A DNA stretch of 51,327 nt. Source: a virus. The translations under genes and the position numbers were made by a program. Under the pieces are notes generated by a model. The model searched no databases and was not told the origin of the DNA. It saw only the letters and a list, made by a program, of their open reading frames with translations. The stretch covers positions 1-51,327 of IMG/VR virus record IMGVR_UViG_3300043640_000192, one strand, 5' to 3'. Of the stretch, positions 7,688 to 41,529 are shown piece after piece; position 1 is the first letter of the stretch; each line of letters begins with the position of its first letter.

Positions 7688-7701
7688 GGACGGGCTGACA
7701 G

Positions 7702-8217
7702 ATGGCACTGGCACGCGCATACAAGGTCGGCGTCTTCGACACCTCGACCCCCCTGGCCACCGGCGCCACGTCCACGGTGACCACTCCTATCCCGATCCTG
7801 TACGGGGTGACCACGGCCACCGCTGACTGCTACATCTCCGCCGTCCGGTGCAGCGTCCTGGGGGCGGCGGCGTTCCCGTCGAACGCGTCGGTGGTGTTCT
7901 CGCTGAACATCAACACCGGCGCGCAGGCCGGCGGTAACACGGCACTGGCCCGGCAGCTGGCCGGTAACGCGCTGGCCGCGAACACGCTGTTCAAGACGGC
8001 GGGCGGCACGTCCGCGGCGGCGATCACCGGCCTGACGATGACCACTGAGCTGTGGGCGCAGTCGGTGCCGTTCACCGCCGGGTCGAACTGGGGTGAGTGG
8101 AAGACGCCGGGGTTCGAGATCCCGGTCCCCATCTCCACGCAGTTCGCGCTGTTCGTGACGGCGTCGTCTGCGGGGACGGGCACGACGTTCGCCGGCGAGA
8201 TCGAGTTCACTGAGTGA
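7702..8217 (+). CDS. Hypothetical structural protein (predicted beta-rich)
   Basis: Track ORF of 171 aa with Thr/Ala/Ser-rich strand-like composition, located in the head/neck region. Confidence 0.5.
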   Translation: MALARAYKVGVFDTSTPLATGATSTVTTPIPILYGVTTATADCYISAVRCSVLGAAAFPSNASVVFSLNINTGAQAGGNTALARQLAGNALAANTLFKTAGGTSAAAITGLTMTTELWAQSVPFTAGSNWGEWKTPGFEIPVPISTQFALFVTASSAGTGTTFAGEIEFTE

Positions 8218-8260
8218 TGCCCCTCCGGTAGCTGAAGGGAGGTTGTGAGGGGAGGCCGCG

Positions 8261-9937: not shown

Positions 9938-9945
9938 GAGACCAG

Positions 9946-10854
9946 GTGTCAGCGACCGTCTTCTACTCCGGCGCCAGCGAGATCGCCACCCTCGCCAACA
10001 CGTTCAAGGTGAACGGCGTGGCCACCGACCCGACCGTGATCACGTGCGTCGTCACCGACCCCGCCGGCGGCCAGGTCACCTACGCCGTCACCGCCGGGCA
10101 GATCGTCCGCACCGGCACGGGTGTCTACACCCTGAACATCCCGTGCCTCCTCGACGGCATCTGGTCCTACGTGTGGATCGGCACCGGCACCGCCTCCGAC
10201 GTGGCCGCCGGGACGTGGACTGTCCAGCCCGTCACCGTCGGCCAGTATTACTGCACCGCCGAGGAACTGAAGTCGCGCCTGTCCATCACCGACACGTCCG
10301 ACGACGACCAGGTGATCCTCGCCTGCCAGGCCGCCTCCAGGTGGATCGAGGGCGCGACCGGCCGGTACTTCTGGCGGGGCACCGACACCCGCACCTACGT
10401 CCCGGAGAGCCTCTGGGGCCTGTCCACCGACGACCTGGTGTCCGTCACCACCCTGAAGACCGACGCGGACGGCGACGGGGTGTTCGAGACCACATGGACG
10501 GCGGGCACCGACTTCGAGCTGGCCCTGGGCGAGCGTGCCTACAACACGGGTGCGTCGGGGGAGCAGCGGCCCTACACCCAGATCCGGGTGACCGGCGGGA
10601 AGTTCTTCCCGTTCACGTGGGCGTTCACCCGCCAGGACCGCATCCAGGTCGTCGGCGTGTTCGGCTGGCCCGCGATCCCCCCCGCGGTCCGCCAGGCCGC
10701 CATGCAGCTCGCCGCCGACTATTTCAAGCTCAAAGATGCCCCGTTCGGCGTGGTCGGGTTCGGCGACATGGGCGTGGTCCGCGTCAAGCCGAACCCGCAG
10801 ATCTACGCCCTCCTGCAGCCCTACGTCCGCGGCAGCCGCAAGGTCGGGGTCTGA
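9946..10854 (+). CDS. Head-tail adaptor (gp6-like connector) with an extra ~100-aa N-terminal domain
   Basis: 'YCTAEELKSRLSITDTSDDDQVILACQAASRWIEGATGRYFW' is a typical gp6-type connector motif. It is preceded by an Ig-like looking N-terminal segment. Confidence 0.7.
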   Translation: MSATVFYSGASEIATLANTFKVNGVATDPTVITCVVTDPAGGQVTYAVTAGQIVRTGTGVYTLNIPCLLDGIWSYVWIGTGTASDVAAGTWTVQPVTVGQYYCTAEELKSRLSITDTSDDDQVILACQAASRWIEGATGRYFWRGTDTRTYVPESLWGLSTDDLVSVTTLKTDADGDGVFETTWTAGTDFELALGERAYNTGASGEQRPYTQIRVTGGKFFPFTWAFTRQDRIQVVGVFGWPAIPPAVRQAAMQLAADYFKLKDAPFGVVGFGDMGVVRVKPNPQIYALLQPYVRGSRKVGV

Positions 10855-11270
10855 TGGCCGTCCTGTCCGACGTCCGCGCCGCGCTCGCCGCCGCCGTCGA
10901 CGGCATCCCCGGCCTGCGCGCCACCGGATCCGTCACCGGCGAGGTCAGCCCGCCCATCGCCATCATCGTCCCCGCGCCCGGCACGTTCATCACCTACGGC
11001 GAGACCTTCGAGCCCGGCGTCGCCGGCTACCTCCTGGAGATCATCCTGCTCGTCTCCTACGCCGACGAGCGCAGCGGCCAGCTCCTCATCGACGGCTACC
11101 TGTCCGCCACCGGCCCCTCCTCGGTGCGCGCCGCCGTCGCTGCCGACCAGACCCTCGGCCACGTCGTGGACTACGCCGTCGTCACCACCGCCCAGACGTA
11201 CGGGCTGCTGGAGTGGGGTGGCGTCCAGTACCTCGGCGCCCGCCTGTCCGTCACGGCGGGGACCGAGTAA
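10854..11270 (+). CDS. Head-tail joining / tail-terminator-like protein
   Basis: ATGA overlap with the adaptor gene. 138 aa. Size and position fit a neck protein. Family not firmly recognised. Confidence 0.45.
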   Translation: MAVLSDVRAALAAAVDGIPGLRATGSVTGEVSPPIAIIVPAPGTFITYGETFEPGVAGYLLEIILLVSYADERSGQLLIDGYLSATGPSSVRAAVAADQTLGHVVDYAVVTTAQTYGLLEWGGVQYLGARLSVTAGTE

Positions 11271-11362
11271 TGCGGTGGCTGCGGCCTCCCGCTGAAGGGA
11301 GGTGGTGCCCGTGCGCTGGCTGCTAGTCCATCCAGGGCCGAATTTACTTCTCAGTCGCCGAC

Positions 11363-12370
11363 GTGTTCCGGGGCTGGTCCGAGGCGCTGACCGCCCTCGG
11401 CGAGCAGGTCATGGAATACAACCTCGACACCCGCCTCACCTTTTACGACGCGGCCATGATCGAGACCGGCACCTTCGACGATGACGGCCACACGCAGCTC
11501 CGCAAGGCCGTCACCCGGGAGCAGGCGGTCACGATGGCCGCCGACGGGCTCCTCGGCGCGGCCTACCGCTGGTGGCCGGACGTGATCCTCTGCACGTCGG
11601 CGTTCTTCACCCCGCCGTTCGTGCTGGAGGTCATGCGATCGCGCGGCCACAAGATCGTCATGCTGTTCACCGAGGGCCCGTACCAGACCGGCATGCAGCT
11701 GAAGATGGCGGAGTACGCGCACCTGTCCCTGGTGAACGACCCGTGCGACATAGAGAAGTACCGCGAACTCGGCCCGGCCGAGTACATGCCGCACGCCTAC
11801 CGCCCGGCCATCCACCATCCCGGCCCGGCGGTCCCGGAGCTGGCCTGTGACCTGGGATTCGTCGGTACCGGCTTCCCGTCCCGCATCGAGTTCCTCGAGG
11901 CGATGGACCTGGACGGGCTGGACGTGCTGCTGGCTGGGCACTGGCTGTCCCTGGCGGAGGACTCGCCGCTGCGCAGGCTCGTCGCCCACGACCTCGGCGA
12001 GTGCTTCGGCAACGACCAGGCCGCCGACGTGTATCGCTCGGCCCGGTGCGGCCTGAACCTGTACCGCCGCGAAGCCGAGGACGAGCACGCGGGCGAGGGC
12101 TGGGCGATGGGACCCCGCGAGGTGGAACTCGCCGCGTGCGGCACTTACTTCCTGCGGGACCCGCGGCCGGAATCGGATGAGCTGTTCCCGATGCTGCCCA
12201 GCTTCACCAGCCCGCAGGAGGCGTCGGAGCTGCTGCGCTGGGCGCTCGCCCACCCGCAGGAACGCGCCGAGGCTGCGCTGAAGGCCAGGTCCGCGATAGC
12301 CGGCCGCACGTTCGAAGCCAACGCCAGGTCATTGCTCCGGTTGCTCGACCGGCAGCCAGTCAGCAGGTAG
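11363..12370 (+). CDS. CgeB-like / Glyco_trans_1_2-type glycosyltransferase (body of the gene; the likely true start, GTG 11311, is in another frame)
   Basis: 'FVGTGFPSRIEFL', 'YRSARCGLNLYR', 'GPREVELAACGTYFL' resemble the CgeB/DUF3880 GT family. There is no SD before GTG 11363, whereas a strong SD precedes GTG 11311. Confidence 0.7.
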   Translation: MFRGWSEALTALGEQVMEYNLDTRLTFYDAAMIETGTFDDDGHTQLRKAVTREQAVTMAADGLLGAAYRWWPDVILCTSAFFTPPFVLEVMRSRGHKIVMLFTEGPYQTGMQLKMAEYAHLSLVNDPCDIEKYRELGPAEYMPHAYRPAIHHPGPAVPELACDLGFVGTGFPSRIEFLEAMDLDGLDVLLAGHWLSLAEDSPLRRLVAHDLGECFGNDQAADVYRSARCGLNLYRREAEDEHAGEGWAMGPREVELAACGTYFLRDPRPESDELFPMLPSFTSPQEASELLRWALAHPQERAEAALKARSAIAGRTFEANARSLLRLLDRQPVSR

Positions 12371-12388
12371 GGGAAAGGAACCGGAACC

Positions 12389-12811
12389 GTGGCAAGAATT
12401 CACGGCCGCAACGGCCAGGTGTACATGGGGATCGCCGCCGGGGCACTGGCGTCGCCGCTGCCGTTCCAGGCGTCCTGGACGATGAACATGGTCGTCAACA
12501 AGTCCGACGTCACTGCGTTCGGCGACGGCAACACCGTGTACGTTGCGGGCCTCCCCGACGCGAGCGGCGATTTTGGGGGCTTCATGGACGACGCGACCAG
12601 CCAGACCTACATCGCCGCCGTGGACGGATTGGCGCGCAACTTCTACCTCTATCCGAACATTACAGCAGATCCCTTGGTCTACTGGTTCGGAACTGTGCTC
12701 CCGGACTTTTCCGCTGACGGTGCTATTGGCGGTCCCGTTAACTTCAAATCAACTTGGAACGCTGCCTCGAAAGTGCAAAGGTATACGCAATGGGGCGGTT
12801 TGAATACCTGA
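12389..12811 (+). CDS. Major tail (tube) protein, putative
   Basis: 140 aa. '...WTMNMVVNKSDVTAFGDGNTVYVAGLPDASGDFGG' resembles siphovirus tube proteins. Position is upstream of the chaperone and tape measure genes. Confidence 0.5.
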   Translation: MARIHGRNGQVYMGIAAGALASPLPFQASWTMNMVVNKSDVTAFGDGNTVYVAGLPDASGDFGGFMDDATSQTYIAAVDGLARNFYLYPNITADPLVYWFGTVLPDFSADGAIGGPVNFKSTWNAASKVQRYTQWGGLNT

Positions 12812-13525
12812 CCACTTTGCCAGGTATTCAATGGCGGCTTGCAATACAGCGATGTCGTCGCGGGCATAGCCGAGCATGGGATTGCACCGGTCGCACAGCA
12901 GGCCGCGGACCTGGCCAGTCGCGTGATCATGGTCGAGACTCAGCCCGCGCTGCGTGGTGCCGCCGCAGATGGCACAGACGCCACCCTGCGCGTCCAGCAT
13001 CGCCAGGTACTCGGCGTAGCCAACACCATGCTTACGCTCCCGCTTCCGGTTCACGACCTGCATGCTTTCGCGGTGCCGTCCATCAGCGCTGTAACAATGC
13101 TGAGCGCAGTAACGGAAGCGGCCCGGTAGCTTCGGCACTGGACAGCCTGGTATGCGGCAAGGTTCCTCGGCCGCCTTGCGGAGGTGCTCCAGCTTCCGCT
13201 GATAGGCGTCGTCCCGGTGCTCCTGGCAGAGTTTGGAGCCCTGGCCTTGAACCTTCAGGTTTCCGCAGCCGGTCACCTGGCACAGCTGCGGTGCAACCTT
13301 AGCTGCGCGGCAACGGCGGCATTCGCGATAGCGGCTGCGGAATGACTTCCCGCAGGTGATGCACTGGCGTTCTGCGCGCGTGCACTGGGCGCACAGATGA
13401 TTGGTGCCACGGAAGGCGGTGCCGCAGGCGGTGCATGACCGGTCGGCCGCCCGGCATTCGTAGCACTTGCGGTAACGACCGCGGAACCCCTTCCCGCAGG
13501 CGACGCAGTCGCGCTCAGTGATCAT
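12749..13525 (-). CDS. Endonuclease VII-type (HNH-like) nuclease with three N-terminal zinc-ribbon repeats
   Basis: C-terminal 'GGVCAICGG...LSLDHDHATGQVRGLLCDRCNPMLGY' is the EndoVII signature. The N-terminus carries 3x 'C-x2-CG-x-FR-x5/6-C-x2-C'. Confidence 0.8.
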   Translation of the reverse strand: MITERDCVACGKGFRGRYRKCYECRAADRSCTACGTAFRGTNHLCAQCTRAERQCITCGKSFRSRYRECRRCRAAKVAPQLCQVTGCGNLKVQGQGSKLCQEHRDDAYQRKLEHLRKAAEEPCRIPGCPVPKLPGRFRYCAQHCYSADGRHRESMQVVNRKRERKHGVGYAEYLAMLDAQGGVCAICGGTTQRGLSLDHDHATGQVRGLLCDRCNPMLGYARDDIAVLQAAIEYLAKWSGIQTAPLRIPLHFRGSVPS

Positions 13526-13685
13526 AACTGCGCTTCTCTGTCCTCATAGCGTGCGCGGTAGGCGGCGAGCGCGGCGGCCAGGACCGCGTTGACGGCCTGC
13601 CCGGTGCGCTTGGCGTGGTCTCTGAGCCACGACTCATCCCCCTCCGATGGCCGGAAGGGAATGGGCCGTCGCTTGTGCCGGTCGG
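13521..13685 (-). CDS. Ribbon-helix-helix-like ORF with no canonical start, in frame directly after the lipoprotein TGA (possible pseudogene or recoded gene)
   Basis: Translation read by hand: 'PTRHKRRPIPFRPSEGDESWLRDHAKRTGQAVNAVLAAALAAYRARYEDREAQL*'. High GC3. The stop overlaps the EndoVII ATG. Confidence 0.35.
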
Positions 13686-14246
13686 TCATGACGCGGCCCC
13701 GGTGAAGCTGGCGGCGTTGTAGTCGAACCCGGGGGTGATGGTCACGTTCAGCTGGCTTTCCCAGCTGGCCTGCTGCGCGTCGAACTCGAACAGGTAGGTG
13801 CCGTGCTGGCCCGGGGTGATGGTGCCGGTCGGGTTGTCGATGCCGGTGTCGAACACGGCCTCGAGCTGGCTGCCATCGGGCCCGGCGTTGGCGTCAACGG
13901 TGATCTCGGAGGCGTCGAGGCTGGTTTTGCCGGCGGTGACGCGGACCTTGAGGACGATGGCCGGGTCGCCGGGGTGGCCGCCTCCCGCGTACTGGCCGAC
14001 GGCGGTGACGGTGGCGGAGACGACGGCGACCTGCAGGCCGTCGCTGTAGGTCCAGCCGTTGGCGCGGCCGAACTGCGCCGGGCCGCTGGGCGTCGCCGCG
14101 GGGGTGGTGGCTGGCGCGGCTGACGTGGCCGCGGCGGCCGGGGCGGTGGCTGCGGACGTGGGGTGGCCGGTGGTGGCGCAGCCTGCGGCGGTGAGCGCCG
14201 CTGCGGCGGTGAGCATGAGGCCGGCGGTGATCCTGGTGCGCTTCAT
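13686..14246 (-). CDS. Secreted lipoprotein (lipobox LTAAG|C), beta-sandwich-like
   Basis: 'MKRTRITAGLMLTAAAALTAAGC' is a signal peptide plus lipobox, followed by an Ala/Pro/Thr linker. The gene is on the reverse strand inside the tail operon. Confidence 0.7.
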   Translation of the reverse strand: MKRTRITAGLMLTAAAALTAAGCATTGHPTSAATAPAAAATSAAPATTPAATPSGPAQFGRANGWTYSDGLQVAVVSATVTAVGQYAGGGHPGDPAIVLKVRVTAGKTSLDASEITVDANAGPDGSQLEAVFDTGIDNPTGTITPGQHGTYLFEFDAQQASWESQLNVTITPGFDYNAASFTGAAS

Positions 14247-25216: not shown

Positions 25217-25252
25217 GAAGCCGCCCCGGCCGATGCTGGCCGGGGCGGCTTC
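25217..25252. terminator. Strong bidirectional intrinsic terminator hairpin
   Basis: 'gaagccgccccggcc'-gatgct-'ggccggggcggcttc': a perfect 15-bp stem between the convergent late and leftward operons. Confidence 0.85.
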
Positions 25253-25299: not shown

Positions 25300-25431
25300 T
25301 CAGGGCTTCGGCTTGGCTTTGTGGTAGCCGTCCGAGCACCAGTGGCTGCCGTGCAGATGACAGAATCCGGGGCATTCAGTGCCACCGCACGCGCACGACT
25401 GGATCCGCTCGCGGCAGTTGGTGCAGTTCAC
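25300..25431 (-). CDS. Cys-rich 43-aa protein
   Basis: Hand translation: 'MNCTNCRERIQSCACGGTECPGFCHLHGSHWCSDGYHKAKPKP'. GTGA overlap with the upstream gene. Confidence 0.45.
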   Translation of the reverse strand: MNCTNCRERIQSCACGGTECPGFCHLHGSHWCSDGYHKAKPKP

Positions 25432-25682
25432 CTGACCACCTTCCCATGCACCGGGGCCGGGCCGACCTTGCCGGTGACGACCCCCGGGAGGGCCCGCGCC
25501 GCATCCCCCGCCGCCGTGGGAAAGGTCTCATCCCGCTGGCTGGCCTTCCGGATCGCGTCGTCAGCCAGAACCTCCAGGCACAGCGCCACGAGGACCGGGG
25601 CCACACCCTCGTGAAGCTTCGCGGCAAGGTAGCGGAGTTCGTCCGACGCGCTGCGGCGCTTGATGACGACCTCGGCGCTCAT
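25428..25682 (-). CDS. Chimeric small protein whose 3' half is built from repeats R2 and R1
   Basis: The C-terminal '...AIRKASQRDETFP' duplicates the FtsK-like C-terminus, and 'ARALPGVVTGKVGPAPVHGKVVR' duplicates the end of gene 26361-26834. Confidence 0.5.
   Translation of the reverse strand: MSAEVVIKRRSASDELRYLAAKLHEGVAPVLVALCLEVLADDAIRKASQRDETFPTAAGDAARALPGVVTGKVGPAPVHGKVVR
25432..25500. repeat. R1 copy 1: 69-bp perfect direct repeat
   Basis: 'ctgaccaccttcccatgcaccggggccgggccgaccttgccggtgacgacccccgggagggcccgcgcc' is identical to 26365-26433. Confidence 0.9.
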
Positions 25683-25954
25683 CCGCGGCCTCCAATACCA
25701 CCCGTGCCGCCAATCTCGGGCTCAAAATCATCCAGTGGCTCGTAGCCGCTCACGACACGCCTGACCGCTTCCGCGAGCCGCGTGAAGGCCGCGTCGTCCT
25801 TGCCGCCCAATTGCTTAGCCGCCGGGGCAGGTGGTGGCACCGGGTACACCCGGGCCTCGATCGCCGTCCGGCACTCGGGGCAGATGATCCCGCCCGGGCC
25901 GATGGGGTTCTCGCCGCACTTGCGGCACCGCCACTCGGGCAGTTCGGTGGTCAT
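25679..25954 (-). CDS. Zinc-ribbon protein
   Basis: ATGA overlaps on both sides. Contains 'WRCRKCGENPIGPGGIICPEC'. Confidence 0.55.
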   Translation of the reverse strand: MTTELPEWRCRKCGENPIGPGGIICPECRTAIEARVYPVPPPAPAAKQLGGKDDAAFTRLAEAVRRVVSGYEPLDDFEPEIGGTGGIGGRG

Positions 25955-26364
25955 GGCCTCTCCCACTCCATCTGGTGGTAGTCCGGGTGGTCGGAATAGA
26001 CGGCGGCGAGGAAGTAGAGCGTGGGGCACGGTGCCGGGAACCGTGTGGCGCGGCCGTCGGCTATGGCGGTGCAGACGTGGCACCGCCCGTCAGTAATGCG
26101 GTGCGCGTTCAGGATGGCCCGCTTGGCACCAACCTCGCGCAGCACGCGCTCCGGGTCATGGCGAGCGATGTGGGCTGCGTGCTCGCGAAGCTCCGTCTGA
26201 TAGGTGACGATGTTCCCGGAATTGGTACCGATGACTCCGGGTGGGGGGCGCACCGGGTCGGTCTCGAACCAGTGGTAGTCACCTTGCTTGAGGCCACCGG
26301 AAGCCCGTGCCGCGGCTTCGTCCTCGTCCAGCCGCGCCCGCAGGAAGGCCACCAGATCGCTCAT
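25951..26364 (-). CDS. DUF6221-like protein
   Basis: 'VAFLRARLDEDEAAAR...HIARHDPERVLREVGAKRAIL...DHPDY' matches a family common in Streptomyces and actinophages (recognised from memory). Confidence 0.6.
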   Translation of the reverse strand: MSDLVAFLRARLDEDEAAARASGGLKQGDYHWFETDPVRPPPGVIGTNSGNIVTYQTELREHAAHIARHDPERVLREVGAKRAILNAHRITDGRCHVCTAIADGRATRFPAPCPTLYFLAAVYSDHPDYHQMEWERP

Positions 26365-26834
26365 CTGACCACCTTCCCATGCACCGGGGCCGGGCCGACC
26401 TTGCCGGTGACGACCCCCGGGAGGGCCCGCGCCGGGGCCGGGAGGGCCTGCCGCCGCCCGGTCAGGCTGCGCACCATCGCCCGGGGCAGCGCCGGACGGG
26501 CTGCCTGCCCGGGTGCGGGGATCGGCCGCAGCCCCCGTGCGGCCAGCGCGGCCCGCATCTGCGGCGTGGGCTCGGGCCGGGAGAGCACGGCGCTGCGGTG
26601 CAGGACCCGCGCGTACGCCAGCCCTGCGGCTGACAGCGCGGCGGCCAGGGCCACGAGGGCGATCGTCCACCAGCCGAAGACGCCCACCACCGCGAACGGC
26701 AGCAGGGGCACGCAGAACCCCCAGAACAGCACCCTGCGGCCGGGCTTGGTCAGGGCCGCGCCGACCGCCAGGCCGAGTGCGCCGCCAGCCACCTCGCCGG
26801 GGCCCGGGATGTGCGCGGGGCAAGTGTCACACAT
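26361..26834 (-). CDS. Integral membrane protein (about 3 TM)
   Basis: Track ORF with hydrophobic segments 'VLFWGFCVPLLPFAVVGVFGWWTIALVALAAAL'. The 3' end equals R1. Confidence 0.55.
   Translation of the reverse strand: MCDTCPAHIPGPGEVAGGALGLAVGAALTKPGRRVLFWGFCVPLLPFAVVGVFGWWTIALVALAAALSAAGLAYARVLHRSAVLSRPEPTPQMRAALAARGLRPIPAPGQAARPALPRAMVRSLTGRRQALPAPARALPGVVTGKVGPAPVHGKVVR
26365..26433. repeat. R1 copy 2
   Basis: Identical to 25432-25500. Confidence 0.9.
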
Positions 26835-26973
26835 GACGCCCCCGCTTCCCGCTGCCGCCGCAGTGCAGGCAGCTGTACTTCCGTTTGCCGGCAGTGGGGA
26901 ACGGGTTGAAAACCCAGATCCATCCGCGGCCGCCGCAGGCTCCGCACTTCTTCTTGCCGCCGAGCAGTCTCAT
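26827..26973 (-). CDS. DnaJ-type zinc-finger mini-protein (2x CxxCxGxG)
   Basis: 'MRLLGGKKKCGACGGRGWIWVFNPFPTAGKRKYSCLHCGGSGKRGRHV'. ATGA overlap with the upstream gene. Confidence 0.5.
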   Translation of the reverse strand: MRLLGGKKKCGACGGRGWIWVFNPFPTAGKRKYSCLHCGGSGKRGRHV

Positions 26974-27215
26974 CTCGATCTCCTCTTCGGTTCTGGTAGT
27001 CCCGGGCGGACCAGCCTGGCCCCGGCCCGCACACGGCGGCGGGTGCCCTTGCACCGGCCGCACACGCCATACCTCCGGGGCGACGACCCCCGGTTCCAGC
27101 CGCCCTTCCTCTTCCGGCACGCCTGGCAGCGGCTGTAGGGATGCCACCGCAGGTCGATCCCGTACGCCACGGCGGCGAGGAAGACCAGCGCGGCGATGAC
27201 CGCGGCGAGTTCCAT
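26970..27215 (-). CDS. N-terminal TM plus basic Cys4 zinc-finger protein
   Basis: 'MELAAVIAALVFLAAVAYGI...CQACRKRKGG...CGRCKGTRRR'. The start overlaps the FtsK-like stop. Confidence 0.5.
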   Translation of the reverse strand: MELAAVIAALVFLAAVAYGIDLRWHPYSRCQACRKRKGGWNRGSSPRRYGVCGRCKGTRRRVRAGARLVRPGLPEPKRRSR

Positions 27216-28909
27216 CAGCGCCTCCCCGCGGACCACTCGGCGAGCTGCAGCGGGTCATACTCACCGGCCGCGCCGCGCATCCCCCGCCGCCGCGGGAAGG
27301 TCCCGTCCCGCTGGCTGGCCTTCCGGATCGCGTGCAGCGTCTCCGCGACCATGCCCTCATCCACCGCCTCTTTCAGCGTCACCAGACCTCCCGGAAGGGC
27401 TGGGACAGGACCCCCTGTCCTAGCGACAAACGGCATGTCAGGGCCGGGCGACCCGATTTCGCCCGCTGGCGTCTCACCTGCGACAGTCGCCGCGCCGGGC
27501 ATCCCCGCCGGGCACACGGCCACCTCGCCAGCGGTCGCCAGCGCCCGCGCCTCCCTCGCCGACATGAACGCCCCCTGCGTCTCCCGCGGCCGGTCCGACA
27601 CCACCTGGATACGGCCCGGCGCGAGCGACTTCGGCGGCATCGGGTGATCACCCGCGAGCATCTTCCAGTTGCTGGCCGAGTACCGGCCGAACGCGATCAC
27701 GCCGATGTTCTCCCGCGCGTCCCCGTCACCGCCGGACGCCTTCACCGACAGCCGCTGGCCGATGTAGATGATGTTGGTCAGCACCTGGCGGCCCATGAAG
27801 CTCGCCGAGTCCAGGGCCTCCAGCGCGGGGGAGCGGACCTGGTCCTCACGGTCCCGGGTCTGCCGCCAGTAGGCGCGCAGCTTCGCGATCGTCGCGTTCA
27901 GCTCCTCGCCGACGACGATCAGCCGGGGCCCGACCACGGCGTGGACGTTGCCTTCCAGGTCGGCCCCGGCCAGCGCCACCTCGTTCCGCCGGTCCACCTC
28001 CCGGCCGAGCCACAGCAGCGCGGCGTGGATCTCGTGCGGCCGGCGGGCGATCGCCACGTTCGGCAGGCCAGCGGCCCACTGGTGACTGATCATCTTGTGG
28101 TCGAGGATCAGGCCGATGCAGCCGCGGTACAGCATCTGTGCCAGCAGCGCCCGGGCGGTCACGCTCTTGCCCGCGCCGGAACCCATCGAGAGGCCGATGT
28201 GCGGGGAGTCGGCGGACAGGCTGGAGGTGACCGGCCGGGCCTGCTTGCCGAGGCCCCACACCATCTCGTCAGCGCGGGCCCGGTCGATCGCCTCCCGGAT
28301 GTCGGCCAGGCTCACCCGGGCGGGCGGCGGCTGGCTGGCGGTCAGCTCGAGCGTGGGCTTCGGCCCGGCCAGCCGCCACGCCACGTCGGGGGACTCCATG
28401 CCCAGCTTGGCCGTGGTGATGGCCACCAGCCGCGACTTGTCCTTGTCATCGGCTGGCCAGCCCGGCGGCAGCGCCAGCGCGGCGCGCTGCCGGTCCGGGC
28501 TGACCTCGATCCACGACCCTGGCGGCCGCCCGCGGGGGATCATCGCCACGTCGCACGCGGCCAGGTGCAGCGGCCGGAGCCAGGTGCGATGGTGGCGGAA
28601 GCGCCAGACCAGCCGGGACATCCACCAGATGCCGTAGCCGACTGCGGCCAGGAGGCCCCCGAGGGCGATCCACTGGGTGACCTGCGGGCTGGCGATGTAC
28701 CCGGCGACCAGCGCCACAGCCAGGAGCACGCTGCCGTTCCTGCGGAGCACCCGCTTCCACCGCGGGACCCGGTCGCTCTCGGACACCCCGGCCAGCCACC
28801 GCGCGGCGAGGCCCAGGAACCACTGGGCAGCGACGAACCGGCCGAGCCGCGCGAGCCCGTACGCGGCTGCGACAACGATTACGACAGCTCCCAGGAGCCG
28901 CTCAGCCAT
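27215..28909 (-). CDS. FtsK/SpoIIIE (TraB-like) DNA translocase with N-terminal TM segments and C-terminal wHTH
   Basis: Walker A 'GSGAGKS', Walker B-like 'LIVVGEE', 3-4 N-terminal TM helices, and a C-terminal 'AIRKASQRDGTFPRRRGMRGAAGEYDPLQLAEW'. Confidence 0.8.
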   Translation of the reverse strand: MAERLLGAVVIVVAAAYGLARLGRFVAAQWFLGLAARWLAGVSESDRVPRWKRVLRRNGSVLLAVALVAGYIASPQVTQWIALGGLLAAVGYGIWWMSRLVWRFRHHRTWLRPLHLAACDVAMIPRGRPPGSWIEVSPDRQRAALALPPGWPADDKDKSRLVAITTAKLGMESPDVAWRLAGPKPTLELTASQPPPARVSLADIREAIDRARADEMVWGLGKQARPVTSSLSADSPHIGLSMGSGAGKSVTARALLAQMLYRGCIGLILDHKMISHQWAAGLPNVAIARRPHEIHAALLWLGREVDRRNEVALAGADLEGNVHAVVGPRLIVVGEELNATIAKLRAYWRQTRDREDQVRSPALEALDSASFMGRQVLTNIIYIGQRLSVKASGGDGDARENIGVIAFGRYSASNWKMLAGDHPMPPKSLAPGRIQVVSDRPRETQGAFMSAREARALATAGEVAVCPAGMPGAATVAGETPAGEIGSPGPDMPFVARTGGPVPALPGGLVTLKEAVDEGMVAETLHAIRKASQRDGTFPRRRGMRGAAGEYDPLQLAEWSAGRR

Positions 28910-29316
28910 CAGCCCAGGTCCCCCTGTCCCAGGTGTCTCAATGAGGGACGGAGGGACGCACCTTCCGTTTCCGGTTTTCTTCCTCTCTCCTTGTCCCCCT
29001 CGTTCTCCACCCGGCTGCCCCAGCGCAGGTTGGCAGGGCGGCTGTCCAGCCGGTCCCCGTTCCCGTGCAGCGCCTCCGGCGGACCCGCCCACGCCAGCTG
29101 CACCAGGATGGCCACCCGGATCCGCCTGCCACCAAGTTTGACCGTGGGGTATCCGTCCTTATCCAGCTGCTGGGCCAGTACCTTGCCCCCATGGCGGCGG
29201 CCATTGGCCAGGATCCGGGGCACCGACCGGACGTTGCCCAGCGACGACGCCTGGTAGCCAGCCCGCACGCCGAGCATGCGGCTGGCCGGGACCGGCTTCC
29301 AGGTCTCGTCAGGCAT
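28909..29316 (-). CDS. HNH_3/NUMOD4-type homing endonuclease
   Basis: 'WKPVP...GYQASSLGNVRS' (NUMOD4) and 'GYPTVKL...HGNGDRLDSRPANLRWGSRVEN'. Confidence 0.7.
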   Translation of the reverse strand: MPDETWKPVPASRMLGVRAGYQASSLGNVRSVPRILANGRRHGGKVLAQQLDKDGYPTVKLGGRRIRVAILVQLAWAGPPEALHGNGDRLDSRPANLRWGSRVENEGDKERGRKPETEGASLRPSLRHLGQGDLG

Positions 29317-29848
29317 GGGTGCGCTCCGTCTCTCGCCCGACGTGTCCCCATCGATGGCCGCTGAGGATGCTCTTGACCGTCTCCGTACTCAGGTCGTGCT
29401 CAGCCGCCATCTCCTTCCTTGTTTTGCCGTTCTGGCGGCCCAGCCGGATCGCAAGCACAGTTACTTCGGTGATCCTGGCGTTGCCGTTGCGCTCGCCTCG
29501 CGGGTGGAATGTTCTGCCATGGCGCCGCTTATCGGCTTCGTTGTCGACCTGAGTGCCGTAACACAGATTGCTCAATGTGCAGTTGGTTTCGTCACCATCC
29601 AGGTGCCGTACCTGGGGTGCAGTCCGCGGCCCCACGAACGCGAGCATGACCAGCGCATGGACGAGTTGCGACTTAGCGCCCGAACCCAGACCTACTTGCA
29701 GGTAGCCCCATGGATGCTTTTGCAGCCGCAGCATCCTGCCGCGGCAATGGCGCCCGTTGGGCAGCACGCGGTCCAGTGAGCGGACCCGGCCAAGATCCGA
29801 TACCTCGTAACCCTCGTGACCCGGAATGGGTAGCCAGCGCTCAGCCAT
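29309..29848 (-). CDS. HNH_3/NUMOD4-type homing endonuclease with C-terminal HTH
   Basis: 'WLPIPGHEGYEVSDLGRVRS', 'HLDGDETNCTLSNLCYGTQVDN', then an HTH-like tail. The local GC content is lower than the surroundings. Confidence 0.75.
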   Translation of the reverse strand: MAERWLPIPGHEGYEVSDLGRVRSLDRVLPNGRHCRGRMLRLQKHPWGYLQVGLGSGAKSQLVHALVMLAFVGPRTAPQVRHLDGDETNCTLSNLCYGTQVDNEADKRRHGRTFHPRGERNGNARITEVTVLAIRLGRQNGKTRKEMAAEHDLSTETVKSILSGHRWGHVGRETERTHA

Positions 29849-30422
29849 GACTCTTCATCGCCTTCAGCTCGGCGCGGATCTTCTCCGCTGTCGCCTGGCT
29901 GCAGCTGCGGCGGTCCCGTATCTCCCGCACCGACGGCAGCGGCCGGTGGCCGTTCAGCGCGGCGGGTACAGCGGGAGGTACGTCCCGCCGCGGCCGGACG
30001 GTCACCATCACCATCTCGACCACACCGACGAACGCCGCACCCGGCCACCCTGAGATCACCGCCGCCAGCCACCCGTGCGGCAGGCCGTAGGCGACGTTCG
30101 CGGCGACGGTGGCGCCGATCCCCGCCCACAGCACGATGCGGGGAAGCCAGCGCGCCAGCCACGTCTCAGGCGGGGGCCCGGACGACTGGATGAACAGCAC
30201 CAGCGACGCGGCGATGATCAGCAGGTCCACCGACAGCGGCAGCAGCCGGGCCGCGATGCCGTGCTGGGCGTGCGCCTGGCCGAGGTCGTAGATGTGCGCG
30301 TAGGAGACGATGAACGCGAACGCGGCGACGGCGACGGCGGTCAGGTAGACGGCGGTCCGCAGATCGGCCAGCGGTTCGAGCCACGCTCTAGCACGCGGGG
30401 CTGCTGGTTCCGTAGGGTTCAT
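29841..30422 (-). CDS. DUF2637-like membrane protein with C-terminal HTH-like tail
   Basis: 'AVAVAAFAFIVSYAHIYDLG...LLPLSVDLLIIAASLVL' fits the DUF2637 pattern seen next to FtsK-like genes in actinomycete mobile elements. Confidence 0.6.
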   Translation of the reverse strand: MNPTEPAAPRARAWLEPLADLRTAVYLTAVAVAAFAFIVSYAHIYDLGQAHAQHGIAARLLPLSVDLLIIAASLVLFIQSSGPPPETWLARWLPRIVLWAGIGATVAANVAYGLPHGWLAAVISGWPGAAFVGVVEMVMVTVRPRRDVPPAVPAALNGHRPLPSVREIRDRRSCSQATAEKIRAELKAMKSHG

Positions 30423-30457
30423 CTGGGCCTCTTCCTGCTAGCTCAGGTTGGGGTCAA

Positions 30458-30491
30458 GGGGCCGCAGGCGATGGGAGTCGCCGGTGGCCCC
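30458..30491. terminator. Interrupted hairpin between the DUF397 and DUF2637 genes
   Basis: 'ggggcc..ggcga-tgggag-tcgcc..ggcccc' (6+5 bp). Confidence 0.35.
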
Positions 30492-30498
30492 GCCTTCT

Positions 30499-30720
30499 TT
30501 ATGTGCCTGCGCTGTCGTACCTGCCGGCCTTCACCGCGGCGAGGAACTCGGCCCACTCGGCGGCGGAGAAGTGCCACGTCTCGGGTACGCGGTGACGGCG
30601 GTCGATGAGGTCCACCGCGCCGGACGGCTCACACGCCTTCACCACGATCCGCTGGGCGGCCGAGGCGGAGCCATCCCCGACATCCGCCCCGGCCGCGTCA
30701 TTGCGGGAGGTATGGTCCAT
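30499..30720 (-). CDS. DUF397 (BldB-like) small protein
   Basis: The C-terminal 'WHFSAAEWAEFLAAVKAGRYD' matches the DUF397 signature. Confidence 0.6.
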   Translation of the reverse strand: MDHTSRNDAAGADVGDGSASAAQRIVVKACEPSGAVDLIDRRHRVPETWHFSAAEWAEFLAAVKAGRYDSAGT

Positions 30721-30808
30721 GACCCGGACTCTACGCTCCCACGGGTTACCACGGGAAGCCGTGGCGTCTCTCGCATACCCATGTACTCCCCCGATACGGT
30801 TTGATCTT

Positions 30809-31042
30809 GTGGAGATCGATCATGGCGGGGCCGAGTTCCCCTACCGGCAGCTCGCCGCGATCCTGCGGGAGCGGATCACCGCCGGCGAGTACCCGGCCGG
30901 GCGTCGGCTGCCGTCGATCATGGAGCTGCAGGGCGAGTCCGGGCTGTCGGCCAAGACGGTGCAGCGGGCCATCGCGGTGCTCGCGGCGGAGGGGCTCGTG
31001 GTGACGGTGCCGAACCGCGGCACGTTCGTCACGAACCGCTAA
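30809..31042 (+). CDS. GntR-type winged-HTH regulator (DNA-binding domain only)
   Basis: 'PYRQLAAILRERITAGEYPAGRRLPSIMELQGESGLSAKTVQRAIAVLAAEGLVVTVPNRGTFV'. The GTG start at 30809 is uncertain. Confidence 0.7.
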   Translation: MEIDHGGAEFPYRQLAAILRERITAGEYPAGRRLPSIMELQGESGLSAKTVQRAIAVLAAEGLVVTVPNRGTFVTNR

Positions 31043-31208
31043 CCTGTTGGCTTGGTTCGATAGTGCGGCCGTACATGTCCTTGCCGTCGCCACGTTCGTA
31101 AGCGCTGATCCAGTAACTGACCTGTCCGTACGGGAAGTCCTTCTGCTTGGCTCCCCATCTCAGGAAGGCCTGAAGCTCGGCACTGGTCACGTCATCCTCC
31201 ACTGTCAT
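31029..31208 (-). CDS. Hypothetical 59-aa protein in a lower-GC patch next to the integrase region (moron candidate)
   Basis: Internal ATG of track ORF 31029..31340. 14-nt convergent overlap with the GntR gene. Confidence 0.4.
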   Translation of the reverse strand: MTVEDDVTSAELQAFLRWGAKQKDFPYGQVSYWISAYERGDGKDMYGRTIEPSQQVSGS

Positions 31209-31419
31209 CTTTAGGATGTGGCTGCTTTCCGGCGGTCCCAGTCCAGGGCTTGCACCAGTGACGGGCCGCCGTAGCCGACGGCAAGTGACCCCACCCTGGG
31301 CACGCTCTCCCACCGCACCGGCAGGGCTCAATCGGCTCACCGCACCGGCAGCCCCGGATGATCTCAGCGCCGGTTCCCGTGGCTTCCCGTGGCAGCATCT
31401 GGTTCACCCTCGTTTCCGG

Positions 31420-31443: not shown

Positions 31444-31570
31444 GTACTGGCGGCCCGCAGGCCCGTTTCCGGCGGTTCCCGGCAGCGTGATCCTGCCACC
31501 GCCGGGTATCTTGCGAGCCAGGGAACATGGAACCTTTCATGTCTCCTAGCCCGCAAGATATCATCGCAGC

Positions 31571-33145
31571 GTGACAACTGACCCGCAAGAGGCGGTGCTG
31601 GCCGGGATCTACACCCGGATGTCCGTCGCCGCCATCGGTGACACCACGAAGGTTGAGGACCAGGAGAGCATCAGCCGCGGCCTTGCGAAGCACCGCGACT
31701 GGGAAGTCGTGGAGGTGTACTGCGACAACAGCCGGTCGGCGTGGCAGCGCAACCGCAAGCGCCCGGGCTGGGACCGGATGCTCGCCGACGTCGAGGCCGG
31801 GAAGATCAACGCGATCATCGTCTACCACGGCGACCGCCTCGTCCGGCAGCCCCGTGATCTTGAGGACCTGCTCGACCTCGCGCACGGCAAGGGGATCAAG
31901 CTCGCCTCGCCGACCGGCACCCGGGACCTGGACGACGACGAGGCCCAGTTCATCCTCGGCATCGAGGCGAACATGGCCCGCCGCGAGTCGGCCAATACCT
32001 CCCGCCGCCGTAAGGCCCAGTACGCACGCTGGCGCCGCGAGGGCCGGGTGCGGCCGGGTGGCCGCGGCGGCCGGGCGTTCGGCTTCGCCACCGACGGTGT
32101 CAGCCACCTGCCGCCCGACCGCTGCGACGTCGCCACCCGCGAAGAGCTCACCGAGGCGGACGTGATCCGGGAGATGGCCCGCCGCATCCTGGACGGCGAG
32201 ACCACCGGGACGGTGTCGAGGGACATCTCAGCCCGCGGCTGGCGCACCCCTGCTGGCGGCAAATTCACGCACGGCACGCTCCGCAAGATGCTCGCCCGGG
32301 CGCGGTACGCCGGGCTGATGCCCGACGGCGTGAGCAAGGCCGCGTGGGAGCCCATCCTGGACAGGGAGACCTGGGAAGCGCTCGCCGTGGTGCTGGACTC
32401 GAAGGCGGCGGCGTTCCGCTATGCGACGAACGCGCGACGGTACCTGCTGTCCGGCATCGCCCGGTGCGGCGCGTGCGGCGCCCCCCTTCATATGCGCGCC
32501 GCCTACCACCGGCCTGGCCAGACCGGGTACGCGTGCATCGAGGACGGGTGCAAGAAGGTCTACCGCTCAGTGGCGCTGCTTGACATGTACGTGGCCGCTG
32601 CCGTGGTGGGCCGCCTGGCCAAGGAGGGCAACCCGGAGGGGCATCTTCCCTCGGTGCCCGGGCTGGCCGCCGAGTGGCGGGCCCTTGACGAGGAGCGCGC
32701 CGCGGTGGAGGCCAGGATTGCCGACTACCGGAAGGGCGGCCTGACCTCCCTGCTTGCCCGCCTTGACTCCCTCGACGCCCGGCTGGCCGAGCTCCGCGAG
32801 CTGGCCCGGGGGGACGCGGACGCCCGGCTGCGGGGCCGCCACGCCGGGATCACGCTCGCGGAGTTCCTCGCTGAGCCCCTCGGTACCCGCCGTGCGCTGG
32901 TCTCGGCGTGCCTTGAGGTGACCGTGCTGCCCGCCTCGCGGCGCGGGCCCGGGTTCCGTACGGAAGACGTGCGGCTGGTACCCCGTGTCAGCGGCCAGGG
33001 GGCCGCGGGCCAGGGCGGCGACGGCGTAAGCGGCGCCGATGCCGAGGATGACGGCGGCGATGACCTTGACGATGCCGAGGTGACGGGGGCCGAGGGGCCT
33101 GGGGGGCTTGCGGTGCCGGACGGGGATGCGGGGCTCCTCGCTTAA
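31571..33145 (+). CDS. int: Large serine recombinase (integrase)
   Basis: 'GIYTRMSV' holds the catalytic Ser. Resolvase domain, recombinase domain, zinc ribbon 'CGACGAPL...CIEDGC' and coiled coil are present. A start at GTG 31598 after SD 'aagagg' is also possible. Confidence 0.85.
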   Translation: MTTDPQEAVLAGIYTRMSVAAIGDTTKVEDQESISRGLAKHRDWEVVEVYCDNSRSAWQRNRKRPGWDRMLADVEAGKINAIIVYHGDRLVRQPRDLEDLLDLAHGKGIKLASPTGTRDLDDDEAQFILGIEANMARRESANTSRRRKAQYARWRREGRVRPGGRGGRAFGFATDGVSHLPPDRCDVATREELTEADVIREMARRILDGETTGTVSRDISARGWRTPAGGKFTHGTLRKMLARARYAGLMPDGVSKAAWEPILDRETWEALAVVLDSKAAAFRYATNARRYLLSGIARCGACGAPLHMRAAYHRPGQTGYACIEDGCKKVYRSVALLDMYVAAAVVGRLAKEGNPEGHLPSVPGLAAEWRALDEERAAVEARIADYRKGGLTSLLARLDSLDARLAELRELARGDADARLRGRHAGITLAEFLAEPLGTRRALVSACLEVTVLPASRRGPGFRTEDVRLVPRVSGQGAAGQGGDGVSGADAEDDGGDDLDDAEVTGAEGPGGLAVPDGDAGLLA

Positions 33146-33378: not shown

Positions 33379-33720
33379 TTATAAGGCAGGCGGCTCGTGG
33401 GCCCTCGGCAGGTGCTCCAGGCGCCGGGCCCTCAGCTGGGCTATGAGGACGAGTTTCTCGCTGCGGGGAAGGCGGGGATCTTCCGCGAGCGCGCTCTCCA
33501 CCGGGTCGTCCCGGTCATACCAGTCGTCCCGGTCATCGGTAAGGCTGACGCCGAGGACCGCCTCGATGGCTCCCTCGGTGCGCTGGGGCAGCTGCCGGCC
33601 GCGTTCCCACATGGAAACTGTTGCGCGATTGACGCCGAGCTTGTCCGCCAGTTGCTGCTGGGTGAGCTTCAGGGCCTGCCTGCGCAGGCGGATCCGCTTG
33701 CCCATGGGCGCGTCAGCCAT
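33379..33720 (-). CDS. CI-like immunity repressor (XRE-family HTH)
   Basis: 'IRLRRQALKLTQQQLADKLGVNRATVSMWERGRQLP'. Divergent from a Cro-like gene. Confidence 0.75.
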   Translation of the reverse strand: MADAPMGKRIRLRRQALKLTQQQLADKLGVNRATVSMWERGRQLPQRTEGAIEAVLGVSLTDDRDDWYDRDDPVESALAEDPRLPRSEKLVLIAQLRARRLEHLPRAHEPPAL

Positions 33721-33888
33721 GACCGCAATCATGAACGCATAACGCAACACAAGTCAACCTTGTGCAACCAGGAAGCCTGATCGTACACAAGGTGTCACCA
33801 CCCCGCAACCGTTCAGCGTTTAAGCAGGTCATGAGGTTTTGTGAAATGGGACTTGCGGTGTTGCGTTGGGTTGAGTAGGTTCTACGGC
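33721..33888. promoter_or_regulatory. Divergent genetic-switch region with repeated GCAAC/CACAAG half-sites
   Basis: Lower GC. 'aacgcaacac' (33741-50) is the inverted complement of 'gtgttgcgtt' (33858-67). Also contains 'cacaag-tcaac-cttgtg'. Confidence 0.6.
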
Positions 33889-34122
33889 ATGGCATCTCGT
33901 CGAACCAATGGTGTTGCGATCCGCGAGCTACGCAGCGCCCTTGGCATCTCCCAGGGAGACCTCGCGGCTGCGGTGGGGGTGGACCGGACCGCCATCTGGC
34001 GCATCGAGAGAGACGGCACCCAGCCCAGGCCAGACACCCTGCGGAAGATCGCTGACCGTCTTGGGGTGCCGCTCGACGCGATCAGCATCACGGTCCCTGA
34101 GCCCGAGGACGTGGCGTCGTGA
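33889..34122 (+). CDS. Cro-like XRE-family HTH regulator
   Basis: 'IRELRSALGISQGDLAAAVGVDRTAIWRIERDGTQP'. Confidence 0.7.
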   Translation: MASRRTNGVAIRELRSALGISQGDLAAAVGVDRTAIWRIERDGTQPRPDTLRKIADRLGVPLDAISITVPEPEDVAS

Positions 34123-40709: not shown

Positions 40710-40924
40710 CCAGCTACCAGGCATGCGACGACTGCGGCGCCAGGATTCTGATCGTCCGAGGGGTGCCCGTGTTGAACCATGGCCGCGATCCCGCCGGTGG
40801 CGTGGCCGTCACCTTCACCCACCCGCGTGCGGCGCGGTTCCTGGCGCGCGGTGAGGAGCCCGGCTGGGACGAGCATCGCCATTCGGTGCACCAGTGCGGG
40901 GCCGTGGCGGAGGTGACGGGGTGA
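40706..40924 (+). CDS. Hypothetical protein
   Basis: GTGA overlap with the upstream gene. Confidence 0.45.
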   Translation: MTSYQACDDCGARILIVRGVPVLNHGRDPAGGVAVTFTHPRAARFLARGEEPGWDEHRHSVHQCGAVAEVTG

Positions 40925-41529
40925 GCAGGCCGCGGCTGCTGGACCTGTTCTGCGGGGCGGGCGGCGCGGCCATGGGCTACCACCGCGCCGGGTTCGACGT
41001 GGTGGGCGTGGACATAGAGCCGCAGCCGCACTATCCGTTCGAGTTCATCCGGGCCGACGCCATGACGTACGCGCTCGACGGGTTCGATGCAATCCATGCC
41101 AGCCCGACCTGCCAGCACTACTCCCGGGCGACCGCCTGGCGGGGTGACCGCGGCGACCATCCGGATCTGCTGACGCCAATGCTCGCGCGGCTGGCCACGG
41201 CCCGCATTCCGTGGGTGGTCGAGAACGTCCCGGAGGCATGCCCGCCGCTACGGCCGGACTACAGGCTCTGCGGCACCCAGTTCGGCCTGCCGGTGCGCCG
41301 CCATCGCAGCTTCCAGCGCGGCAACTGGACGGCATACGAGCTGATGCCGGGCTGCCAGTGCTACCGCAATCCCCGGCTGCTGCCGTTCATGCACAAGGGC
41401 GAACGGGCGTTCGCCGACGCCATGGGCTGCACCTGGATGACCAAAGAGGAAGGCCGCCAGGCCATTCCGCCCACCTACACCGAGCACATCGGCCGCCAGC
41501 TCCTCGCCGCCATGGCGCTCACCCCATAG
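40921..41529 (+). CDS. DNA (cytosine-5) methyltransferase, short form
   Basis: Motif I 'LDLFCGAGG', motif IV 'SPTCQ', motif VI 'ENV', and 'QFGLPVRRHR'. Confidence 0.8.
   Translation: MSRPRLLDLFCGAGGAAMGYHRAGFDVVGVDIEPQPHYPFEFIRADAMTYALDGFDAIHASPTCQHYSRATAWRGDRGDHPDLLTPMLARLATARIPWVVENVPEACPPLRPDYRLCGTQFGLPVRRHRSFQRGNWTAYELMPGCQCYRNPRLLPFMHKGERAFADAMGCTWMTKEEGRQAIPPTYTEHIGRQLLAAMALTP

Follow-up and report, generated by a model that had tools for sequence, protein, structure and literature searches.

A DUF2637-ATPase operon of uncultured temperate actinophages has counterparts on actinomycete plasmids

Why does a temperate tailed phage keep, between its lysis genes and its integrase, an operon laid out like the transfer genes of an actinomycete plasmid? 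The question is raised by IMG/VR virus record IMGVR_UViG_3300043640_000192, of which positions 1 to 51,327 (51,327 bases, ~70% GC; hereafter the window) are a complete temperate siphovirus genome, from a phage of high-GC actinobacteria. A first-pass annotation had seen in this locus a plasmid-like tra-spd-kor module and had proposed a hybrid between a phage and an actinomycete integrative and conjugative element (AICE). To judge from sequence, the locus is probably a plasmid-type tra/kor-like (kil/kor-style) module of a separate, uncharacterised family: plasmids carry full-length 'Tra' homologues of its ATPase, DUF2637 genes and, on NZ_CP109008, a divergent GntR-UTRA gene, while kinship with TraB or Spd was not found in our tests. 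We tentatively consider it a kil/kor-style operon common to actinomycete plasmids and a temperate actinophage lineage that would encode a double-stranded DNA pump for virion-independent spread, a reading that we regard as possible and hold with some doubt.

The leftward operon comprises 12 genes (30720 to 25300) between the lysis genes and a large serine integrase and is divergent from the GntR gene across an 88-bp spacer. Third-codon-position GC periodicity backs all reading frames of the module. Stop/start overlaps of 1-8 nt (ATGA, GTGA, TGATG) join the genes from DUF2637 through the last one (two nominal junctions of 22 and 31 nt become 1 and 4 nt if two small zinc-protein genes use a downstream ATG), and these genes appear to be translationally coupled to the operon end. 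Everything that the first-pass annotation had listed is present (ATPase, DUF2637 protein, small proteins, DUF6221 protein, chimeric open reading frame (ORF), GntR gene, palindrome and integrase), with the two NUMOD4/HNH genes and the first operon gene (30499-30720) having been overlooked. The central features are, in the order of the operon and starting with the GntR gene:

30809-31042 (+): GntR-family regulator of 77 aa consisting of the winged helix-turn-helix (wHTH) only, a candidate Kor-like repressor (Pfam GntR, E 2e-17; no effector domain)
30721-30808: divergent control region with CCACGGG direct repeats (30740, 30750) and the palindrome CCACGGGAAGCCGTGG at 30750-30765 (CCACGG-GAAG-CCGTGG)
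29841-30422 (-): DUF2637 membrane protein (Pfam, E 9e-9; four transmembrane helices by hydrophobicity)
29309-29848 (-): NUMOD4 + HNH_3 endonuclease of 179 aa, an extra paralogue (Pfam; PADLOC 'homing endonuclease', E 3.5e-10)
28909-29316 (-): NUMOD4 + HNH_3-like endonuclease of 135 aa (Pfam NUMOD4, E 6e-12; HNH_3 at 23.9 bits, just below cutoff)
27215-28909 (-): membrane-anchored FtsK-like P-loop ATPase of 564 aa with a C-terminal HTH-like domain (AlphaFold2 model, Foldseek, motifs)
26970-27236 (-): small protein with one transmembrane helix and two CxxC pairs (4 Cys), directly 3' of the ATPase gene

The residues of the Walker A motif GSGAGKS of the ATPase (S244, G245, G247, K248 and S249) are invariant in 44 homologues, and likewise invariant in the family are an EE Walker B and a GQRLS motif, the latter aligning with TQKPT of pIJ101 Tra. 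The AlphaFold2 model built on these 44 homologues (predicted local distance difference test, pLDDT, 84) starts at the N-terminus with four long helices, two or more of them hydrophobic enough for a membrane span (transmembrane-like stretches 5-23 and 59-77), followed by a P-loop core (130-460), a disordered linker and a C-terminal helix-helix-hairpin-helix (510-563). In Foldseek searches of the PDB the FtsK motor came first (E 4e-16 to 1e-15 over 350-376 aligned columns of the alpha and beta domains; template modelling score, target, 0.53-0.62), followed by TcpA (1e-14) and EccC/EssC, with HerA and VirB4 far weaker. As modelled, the ATPase is at fold level an FtsK-type motor, and the FtsK-like translocase with TraB-like layout that had been read from the sequence is borne out by these matches and by the predicted succession of N-terminal membrane helices, motor and C-terminal DNA-binding-like domain, as in Tra/TraB proteins. 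Among viral models the nearest neighbours were other phage 'FtsK' translocases. A grouping with packaging ATPases, which would have spoken against the first-pass assignment, was not seen: these were far weaker matches than FtsK and TcpA, and identity as a packaging ATPase was rejected because the phage has a TerL and the fold of packaging ATPases of viruses matches only remotely (E ~1e-4).

By sequence, the ATPase has no match in Pfam (including FtsK_SpoIIIE, PF01580) or NCBIfam and a marginal one in PHROG (FtsK/SpoIIIE-like, E 0.006); PF01580 is weakly matched by 14 of the 44 relatives, at best with E 3.5e-4. The family comprises 656 clusters at E<=1e-30 and 1,498 at E<=0.001 (clusters at the 50% identity level, among 1.84 billion representatives), and as the latter number is so small, the profile falls short of the huge canonical FtsK/SpoIIIE family. 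From the FtsK motor (PDB 2iut, 2ius, 6t8b), which it resembles in the alpha and beta domains, P-loop, Walker B and TQRPS-like motif, the ATPase differs in having a short N-terminal membrane anchor, a Pfam score below threshold and, instead of the gamma (KOPS-binding) domain, a different C-terminal domain that is HTH-like. The C-terminal wHTH of the first-pass annotation stands as far as the helix-helix-hairpin-helix of the model goes; searched alone, the domain has no sequence match in Pfam or the PDB, and its assignment is based on predicted secondary structure and an excisionase/MerR-like motif of our own reading. A C-terminal motif, VTLxEA...AxRKAxxRDxxFP...Y...L..W, is common to phage and plasmid members. 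The best PDB sequence-profile match (E 2e-4, Walker A region only) is TcpA, the FtsK-like type IV coupling protein of Clostridium perfringens pCW3 (PDB 6o1w). TcpA is membrane-anchored too. In conjugation by type IV secretion systems (T4SS) of Tcp/VirB4 type, the coupling protein is accompanied by a VirB4-like ATPase, TcpC and a relaxase, none of which was found among the phage ORFs examined.

The closest parallels to the module as a whole are on plasmids. In tblastn searches of PLSDB, ATPase homologues were identified on at least 68 plasmid records, 62 of them from Streptomyces, with annotations such as 'DUF87', 'pRL2-11', 'Tra protein' and 'FtsK'. In 18 records a single place covers at least 80% of the query, with 28-36% identity over 81-96% of the length; the other matches are partial. 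Alignments of the hidden Markov model (HMM) of the family with plasmid 'Tra/DUF87' proteins run over the full length, N-terminal region and C-terminal domain included (299-393 bits). Four plasmid records were compared with the phage module: Planobispora pPR2 (NC_019291), the Streptomyces goshikiensis plasmid (NZ_CP108772), pFRL6 (NC_023286) and NZ_CP109008. A DUF2637 gene precedes the ATPase homologue on pPR2, pFRL6 and NZ_CP109008, and on the latter, a 34-kb plasmid of Streptomyces sp. NBC_00691, a GntR gene (with UTRA) is divergent from DUF2637, a small ORF and the ATPase gene; this layout is that of the phage module and of pIJ101 korA/tra. On the plasmids of 15-34 kb (pPR2, the S. goshikiensis plasmid and NZ_CP109008) the ATPase homologue is the sole translocase candidate, and the small plasmids of this size that carry it are typed 'non-mobilizable' by MOB-suite. 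The plasmid version differs from the phage version in its full-length GntR protein with UTRA domain (NZ_CP109008), in a longer DUF2637 protein (321-445 aa) and in having no NUMOD4/HNH gene coupled to the ATPase: HNH is absent from the copies examined on all four plasmids.

The DUF2637 protein of the window itself found nothing by tblastn in the phage (50,697 records) or plasmid collections; it is too divergent for BLAST, though Pfam-annotated DUF2637 genes adjoin the plasmid ATPases. Its AlphaFold2 model (pLDDT 75) has four transmembrane helices and a short C-terminal two-helix domain, and a fold search gave no match in the PDB (best E 1). No more than two open-access papers mention DUF2637.

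Positions 4532-14124 of pFRL6, a 390-kb linear Streptomyces plasmid, hold the DUF2637-Tra pair and, next to it, genes for a protein of the TcpC family and for a VirB4-like AAA_10 ATPase of 867 aa, by its gene content a Tcp/T4SS-like conjugation locus in Streptomyces. The plasmid pPR2 also carries a NUDIX gene, as does pSAM2. On the Pseudonocardia plasmid NZ_CP080522 (L034) a gene for a GmrSD_C/HNH-superfamily nuclease (11681-12439), which is of another family than the phage NUMOD4/HNH proteins, lies two genes 3' of the ATPase homologue.

In phages, the module is not confined to the window. Its ATPase has more than 329 close metagenomic relatives, annotated as hypothetical throughout, with 19 loci in IMG/VR and 7 in GTDB genomes, among the latter metagenome-assembled genomes of Streptosporangiaceae, Pseudonocardiaceae and Kribbellaceae as well as Streptomyces isolates (related loci compared with the window have L-numbers). 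When the module proteins were mapped onto these loci with HMMs and tblastn, a recurring core of overlapping genes was seen: a short GntR gene, divergent from DUF2637, NUMOD4/HNH, ATPase and a protein of 80-110 aa with one transmembrane helix and two CxxC pairs. Short GntR genes are divergent at the equivalent place in six loci (L008, L009, L011, L012, L017, L027), and homologues of the transmembrane/CxxC protein (26970-27236) were found in nine (L004, L005, L008, L009, L017, L019, L027-L029). In the gene maps the core lies between tail/lysis genes and the integrase each time. The integrase of L009 is a tyrosine recombinase; thus, the adjacency of module and integrase holds irrespective of integrase family. 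Because it keeps its position in a whole lineage of phage contigs, the module is an established, stable phage feature and not a recent chimera.

This bears directly on the proposed phage-AICE hybrid, which did not hold. By the definition of Ghinet et al. 2011, an AICE has an integrase, a Rep (RepSA, RepAM or Prim-Pol) and a PF01580 Tra; the window has an integrase, its ATPase is under the PF01580 threshold and the element is a complete siphovirus. A scan of the early region gave no Rep match in its seven largest ORFs, and none of the ORFs scanned was recognised as a NUDIX gene. A recent AICE insertion was rejected too, given the position kept across the phage lineage and flanking integrases of different families.

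More distant members of the ATPase family lie directly 5' of TerL and portal genes and are co-oriented with them (L013-L018), which points to a DNA function that serves the phage. Among the 50,697 cultured-phage records the family was found only in Streptomyces phage Dagobah, as a core fragment with no transmembrane helices. Together with FtsK as the best structural match, both the terminase-adjacent relatives and the Dagobah version would suit an ATPase for intracellular handling of phage DNA, clearing replicated or concatemeric DNA at septa or helping spore inheritance, with no transfer from cell to cell; a precedent is the Streptomyces protein SffA, which is brought to septa by the small membrane protein SmeA. 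We consider such a role quite unlikely. The membrane anchor, the DUF2637 partner and the Kor-like control are features of transfer modules common with plasmids, a terminase and RecET are encoded by the phage itself, and packaging ATPases of viruses are, as said, remote in fold.

The divergent region in front of the operon holds operator-like repeats. The 6+6 palindrome by itself is not significant in a spacer of 88 bp. The exact 9-mer CCACGGGAA, by contrast, occurs three times in the 51-kb window, at 30749, 31374 and 31384, all inside 650 bp around the GntR gene, and two of the copies are part of a tandem motif:

31374-31393 (-): two tandem copies of a 10-bp motif (GCCACGGGAA x2), located in the interval from the GntR gene to the integrase, where a Cys-rich ORF has its 5' end

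Such clustering is what is expected of operator sites, and we regard these copies as candidate operators. Each related locus has its own, different palindrome in the divergent region, as would be expected if repressor and operator co-evolve. The GntR protein, a candidate for a Kor-type repressor, has the wHTH and the divergent position; unlike pIJ101 KorA and the GntR protein of NZ_CP109008, it has no UTRA domain (77 aa). A promoter and terminator scan found no sigma-70-like promoter and a single terminator-like site, intragenic and at chance level. The GntR wHTH was the only match of the module in NCBIfam.

Three small observations concern the same region. The tandem CCACGGGAA motifs fall in the 5' end of the Cys-rich ORF 31192-31398(-), which is paralogous to the last gene of the operon, 25300-25431(-), so that two small ORFs with the motif CxCGG..CPG..H..HWC bracket the module. 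ORF 31192-31398(-) has no Pfam match. It is followed by an ORF of 60 aa (31029-31211), which in turn overlaps with the convergent GntR gene at the 3' end of the latter.

The part of the core with no place in the first-pass annotation is the nuclease. Both NUMOD4+HNH genes of the window sit between DUF2637 and the ATPase gene. The one at 28909-29316 is the orthologue of the conserved phage HNH gene, which is translationally coupled to the ATPase in at least 10 loci; pairwise identities of HNH and ATPase correlate across 12 loci (Spearman 0.66, with pairs that are not independent of each other). The one at 29309-29848 is 44% identical to its neighbour and has a GC content at third codon positions (GC3) of 0.70-0.78, in comparison to at least 0.9 in the neighbouring genes, which suggests that it is a later, horizontally acquired homing-endonuclease copy. 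The domains found, NUMOD4 and HNH_3, are those of free-standing homing endonucleases. Mobile behaviour is partial: in L011 and L012 the HNH gene is downstream of the ATPase gene rather than upstream, and the window has its extra copy; otherwise the gene is conserved and diverges together with the ATPase. The HNH protein may be a homing endonuclease that travels with the ATPase gene, or else it may work together with the ATPase.

The whole locus could also be passenger DNA: a plasmid-derived module with homing endonucleases that persists selfishly and brings the phage no gain in fitness. The two nucleases of a classic free-standing homing type in tandem, one with lower GC3, and the changed HNH position in L011 and L012 would fit, and so would the left half of the operon (25300-26970; DUF6221, zinc ribbons and Cys-rich proteins), which relatives do not share and in which recombination has left scars. 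The scars are of two kinds. An 84-aa ORF (25428-25682) has 85-93% nucleotide identity with the 3' end of the ATPase gene, and a direct repeat of 74 nt, 99% identical, at 25428-25501 and 26361-26434 spans the last 24 codons of two different genes and, with them, the start of the next gene, which overlaps there; this has the appearance of a junction left inside the operon by recent recombination or duplication. The core behaves differently: with ATPase identities among phage copies as low as 35% (range 35-71%), gene order, position and coupling are kept and the catalytic residues are invariant, and the 656 clusters at E<=1e-30 have the full-length architecture. The kept core, the invariant residues and the full-length family indicate purifying selection on a function and argue against a mere passenger, which we think very improbable.

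Prophage exclusion or defence is the main rival to a role in DNA transfer. A membrane complex of the DUF2637 protein and the ATPase would engage phage or plasmid DNA as it enters at the membrane, the HNH nuclease would destroy it or the ATPase expel it, and the GntR protein would restrain this toxic system. Defence systems often contain ATPase-nuclease pairs of the FtsK-HerA superfamily, HerA-type defence structures are among the weaker fold matches of our ATPase, and the HNH gene is translationally coupled to the ATPase gene in most phage copies and co-diverges with it. The module is also oriented opposite to the late genes, has its own repressor and lies between lysis genes and integrase, the usual place for lysogeny accessory genes. 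We nevertheless judge exclusion rather unlikely. The fold is nearest to FtsK and TcpA and not to HerA; PADLOC-DB 2.0 gives only mad8 (E 0.0025, P-loop only) and 'homing endonuclease' for 29309-29848; the plasmid copies have no HNH gene, with the ATPase as the only candidate transfer gene on the small plasmids; and distant family members are co-oriented with phage terminase genes.

Virion-free spread is favoured because of the fold, the plasmid homology, the conservation in phages, the clustering of operator-like repeats and the absence of a known defence match. In the mechanism that we propose, the minimal GntR wHTH protein would act as repressor and bind the CCACGGG-type operators in the divergent promoter region, holding down a toxic (kil-like), translationally coupled leftward operon. 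When expressed, the operon would provide the four-transmembrane DUF2637 protein, the HNH nuclease, the membrane-anchored FtsK-like ATPase and small transmembrane and zinc-finger accessories, which may assemble into a membrane apparatus for the translocation of double-stranded DNA, with the ATPase forming a hexamer, the ring-shaped pump, and its conserved C-terminal HTH-like domain selecting the substrate DNA. The likeliest use would be to move the excised or replicating phage genome over membranes or septal cross-walls of a filamentous host, the outcome being a virion-free, plasmid-like spread to adjacent compartments or cells. A DNA end may come from the HNH nuclease. In its most specific form, a GntR-gated complex of DUF2637, HNH and ATPase that passes the phage genome directly between compartments or cells with an end made by HNH, the proposal is unlikely.

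The parallel with classical systems is one of arrangement. In pIJ101 (korA-tra(kilA)-spdA/spdB) and pSVH1 (traR-traB-spd), as in the window, a GntR repressor gene is divergent from the operon of an FtsK-like ATPase that is membrane-associated and has a C-terminal DNA-binding(-like) domain, and small membrane proteins follow in translational coupling. The protein families are different: pIJ101 Tra matches PF01580 (9e-10) and a MarR-type wHTH, and the window ATPase matches neither.

Several points weigh against a transfer function. With the pIJ101 proteins as sole representatives of the classical Tra/TraB and Spd families, the membership in these families that the first-pass annotation had suggested could not be upheld. 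As far as tested, no relationship of the ATPase with the pIJ101 Tra family, whose function is genetically proven, could be detected outside the P-loop core: BLASTP against pIJ101 Tra was not significant, the family HMM gave it 1.9 bits, below FtsK (19.6) and TcpA (23.4) of the PDB, and hhalign against 28 pIJ101-Tra relatives reached a probability of 31% over 149 columns of the P-loop core only. The DUF2637 protein appears unrelated to pIJ101 SpdB, which has no Pfam domain (hhalign probability 0.3% with the DUF2637 family profile; BLASTP not significant). Plasmid TraB systems include no nuclease, so that the conserved phage HNH is without counterpart there. No clustered 8-10-mer resembling a clt site was found in or near the module, for a recognition sequence that was not known beforehand. 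On pFRL6 the ATPase homologue may be a T4SS coupling protein and not a stand-alone pump, and no such partners were found among the phage ORFs examined. A position between lysis genes and integrase with an own repressor is typical of prophage exclusion genes as well. Finally, no experimental work on the ATPase family or on DUF2637, be it of plasmids or phages, was found in the literature.

The remaining genes of the operon and its borders are:

30499-30720 (-): first operon gene, an acidic protein of 73 aa (frame from GC3 phase; faint DUF397-like C-terminus, Pfam E 0.099)
26827-26973 (-): 48-aa DnaJ-type CXXCXGXG zinc-finger protein (Pfam DnaJ_CXXCXGXG, E 9e-4; ATGA overlap with the upstream gene)
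26361-26834 (-): 157-aa protein with two transmembrane helices, lineage-specific (GC3 0.9-1.0; hydrophobicity)
25951-26364 (-): DUF6221 protein (Pfam, E 9e-29; phrog_6326)
25679-25954 (-): 91-aa zinc-ribbon protein
25428-25682 (-): ORF of 84 aa in which a copy of the C-terminal domain of the ATPase, diverged and in part frame-shifted, is fused to the 74-nt repeat (repeats; GC3)
25300-25431 (-): 43-aa protein with 7 Cys, last operon gene (paralogue at 31192-31398(-))
25217-25252: hairpin with a perfect 15-bp stem, a terminator candidate that separates the convergent lysis and module operons
31571-33145 (+): large serine integrase, flanking the module (Pfam Resolvase, E 5e-25; Recombinase, E 5e-11; Zn_ribbon_recom)

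A gene similar to that of the 48-aa zinc-finger protein (26827-26973) is present in L005, and the 26361-26834 protein has no homologue in the related loci.

The siphovirus setting described by the first-pass annotation is confirmed, with genes for portal, major head protein, head-tail adaptor, tape measure, TerL and RecE/RecT. With its parts 50826-51326 and 3-995 joined, the portal ORF reads in frame over the window ends, from which it follows that the window is an entire metagenomic contig, circularly permuted or terminally redundant. In megablast searches, module and structural half had no match among the 50,697 phage records. Beyond the integrase, a divergent pair of XRE-type HTH genes lies at 33379-34122. 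An imperfect inverted repeat at 31507-31560 (arms of 26 nt, 81% complementary, 2 nt between them), 10 nt 5' of the integrase start, has the form and place expected of a candidate attP site. Four copies of GAACGGGA with 21-bp spacing (cluster at 926-974, in window 920-985) were rejected as a clt-like site: they are coding sequence for a low-complexity repeat of VNG type, located at the C-terminus of the portal protein. A 99-bp tandem repeat (8983-9192; 2.1 copies, 76% matches) lies inside a 558-aa ORF (8261-9937) and in the GC-richest kilobase of the window (0.78), and the early-region ORF 40894-41529 has a partial match to a C-5 cytosine DNA methylase (E 1e-5).

The concept of plasmid spread or transfer genes in actinophages is already in the literature and not new. 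Thoma et al. 2015 (PMC4447253) suggested that the Spd homologues of actinophages (SpdB2 in phiC31 and VWB) might spread phage DNA, FtsK-like genes have been reported in Streptomyces phages (PMC11536984), and a title cited in PMC3583192 is about a plasmid-phage, pZL12, with transfer function. The five-gene core with its GntR switch is not among these reported genes. New is this conserved five-gene core of uncharacterised families with a coupled HNH gene, common to plasmids and uncultured temperate phages.

On the side of the plasmids, the module may mark an overlooked class of conjugative plasmids among the small 'non-mobilizable' ones of actinomycetes. Should exclusion be its role instead, it would represent a new membrane-based ATPase-nuclease type of defence. 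If the module moves DNA, two uncharacterised families, DUF2637 and the ATPase family, would be assigned a function, the boundary between phage and conjugative element would blur, and tailed phages of filamentous actinobacteria would gain a second, virion-free route for spread or lysogeny in the septate mycelium.

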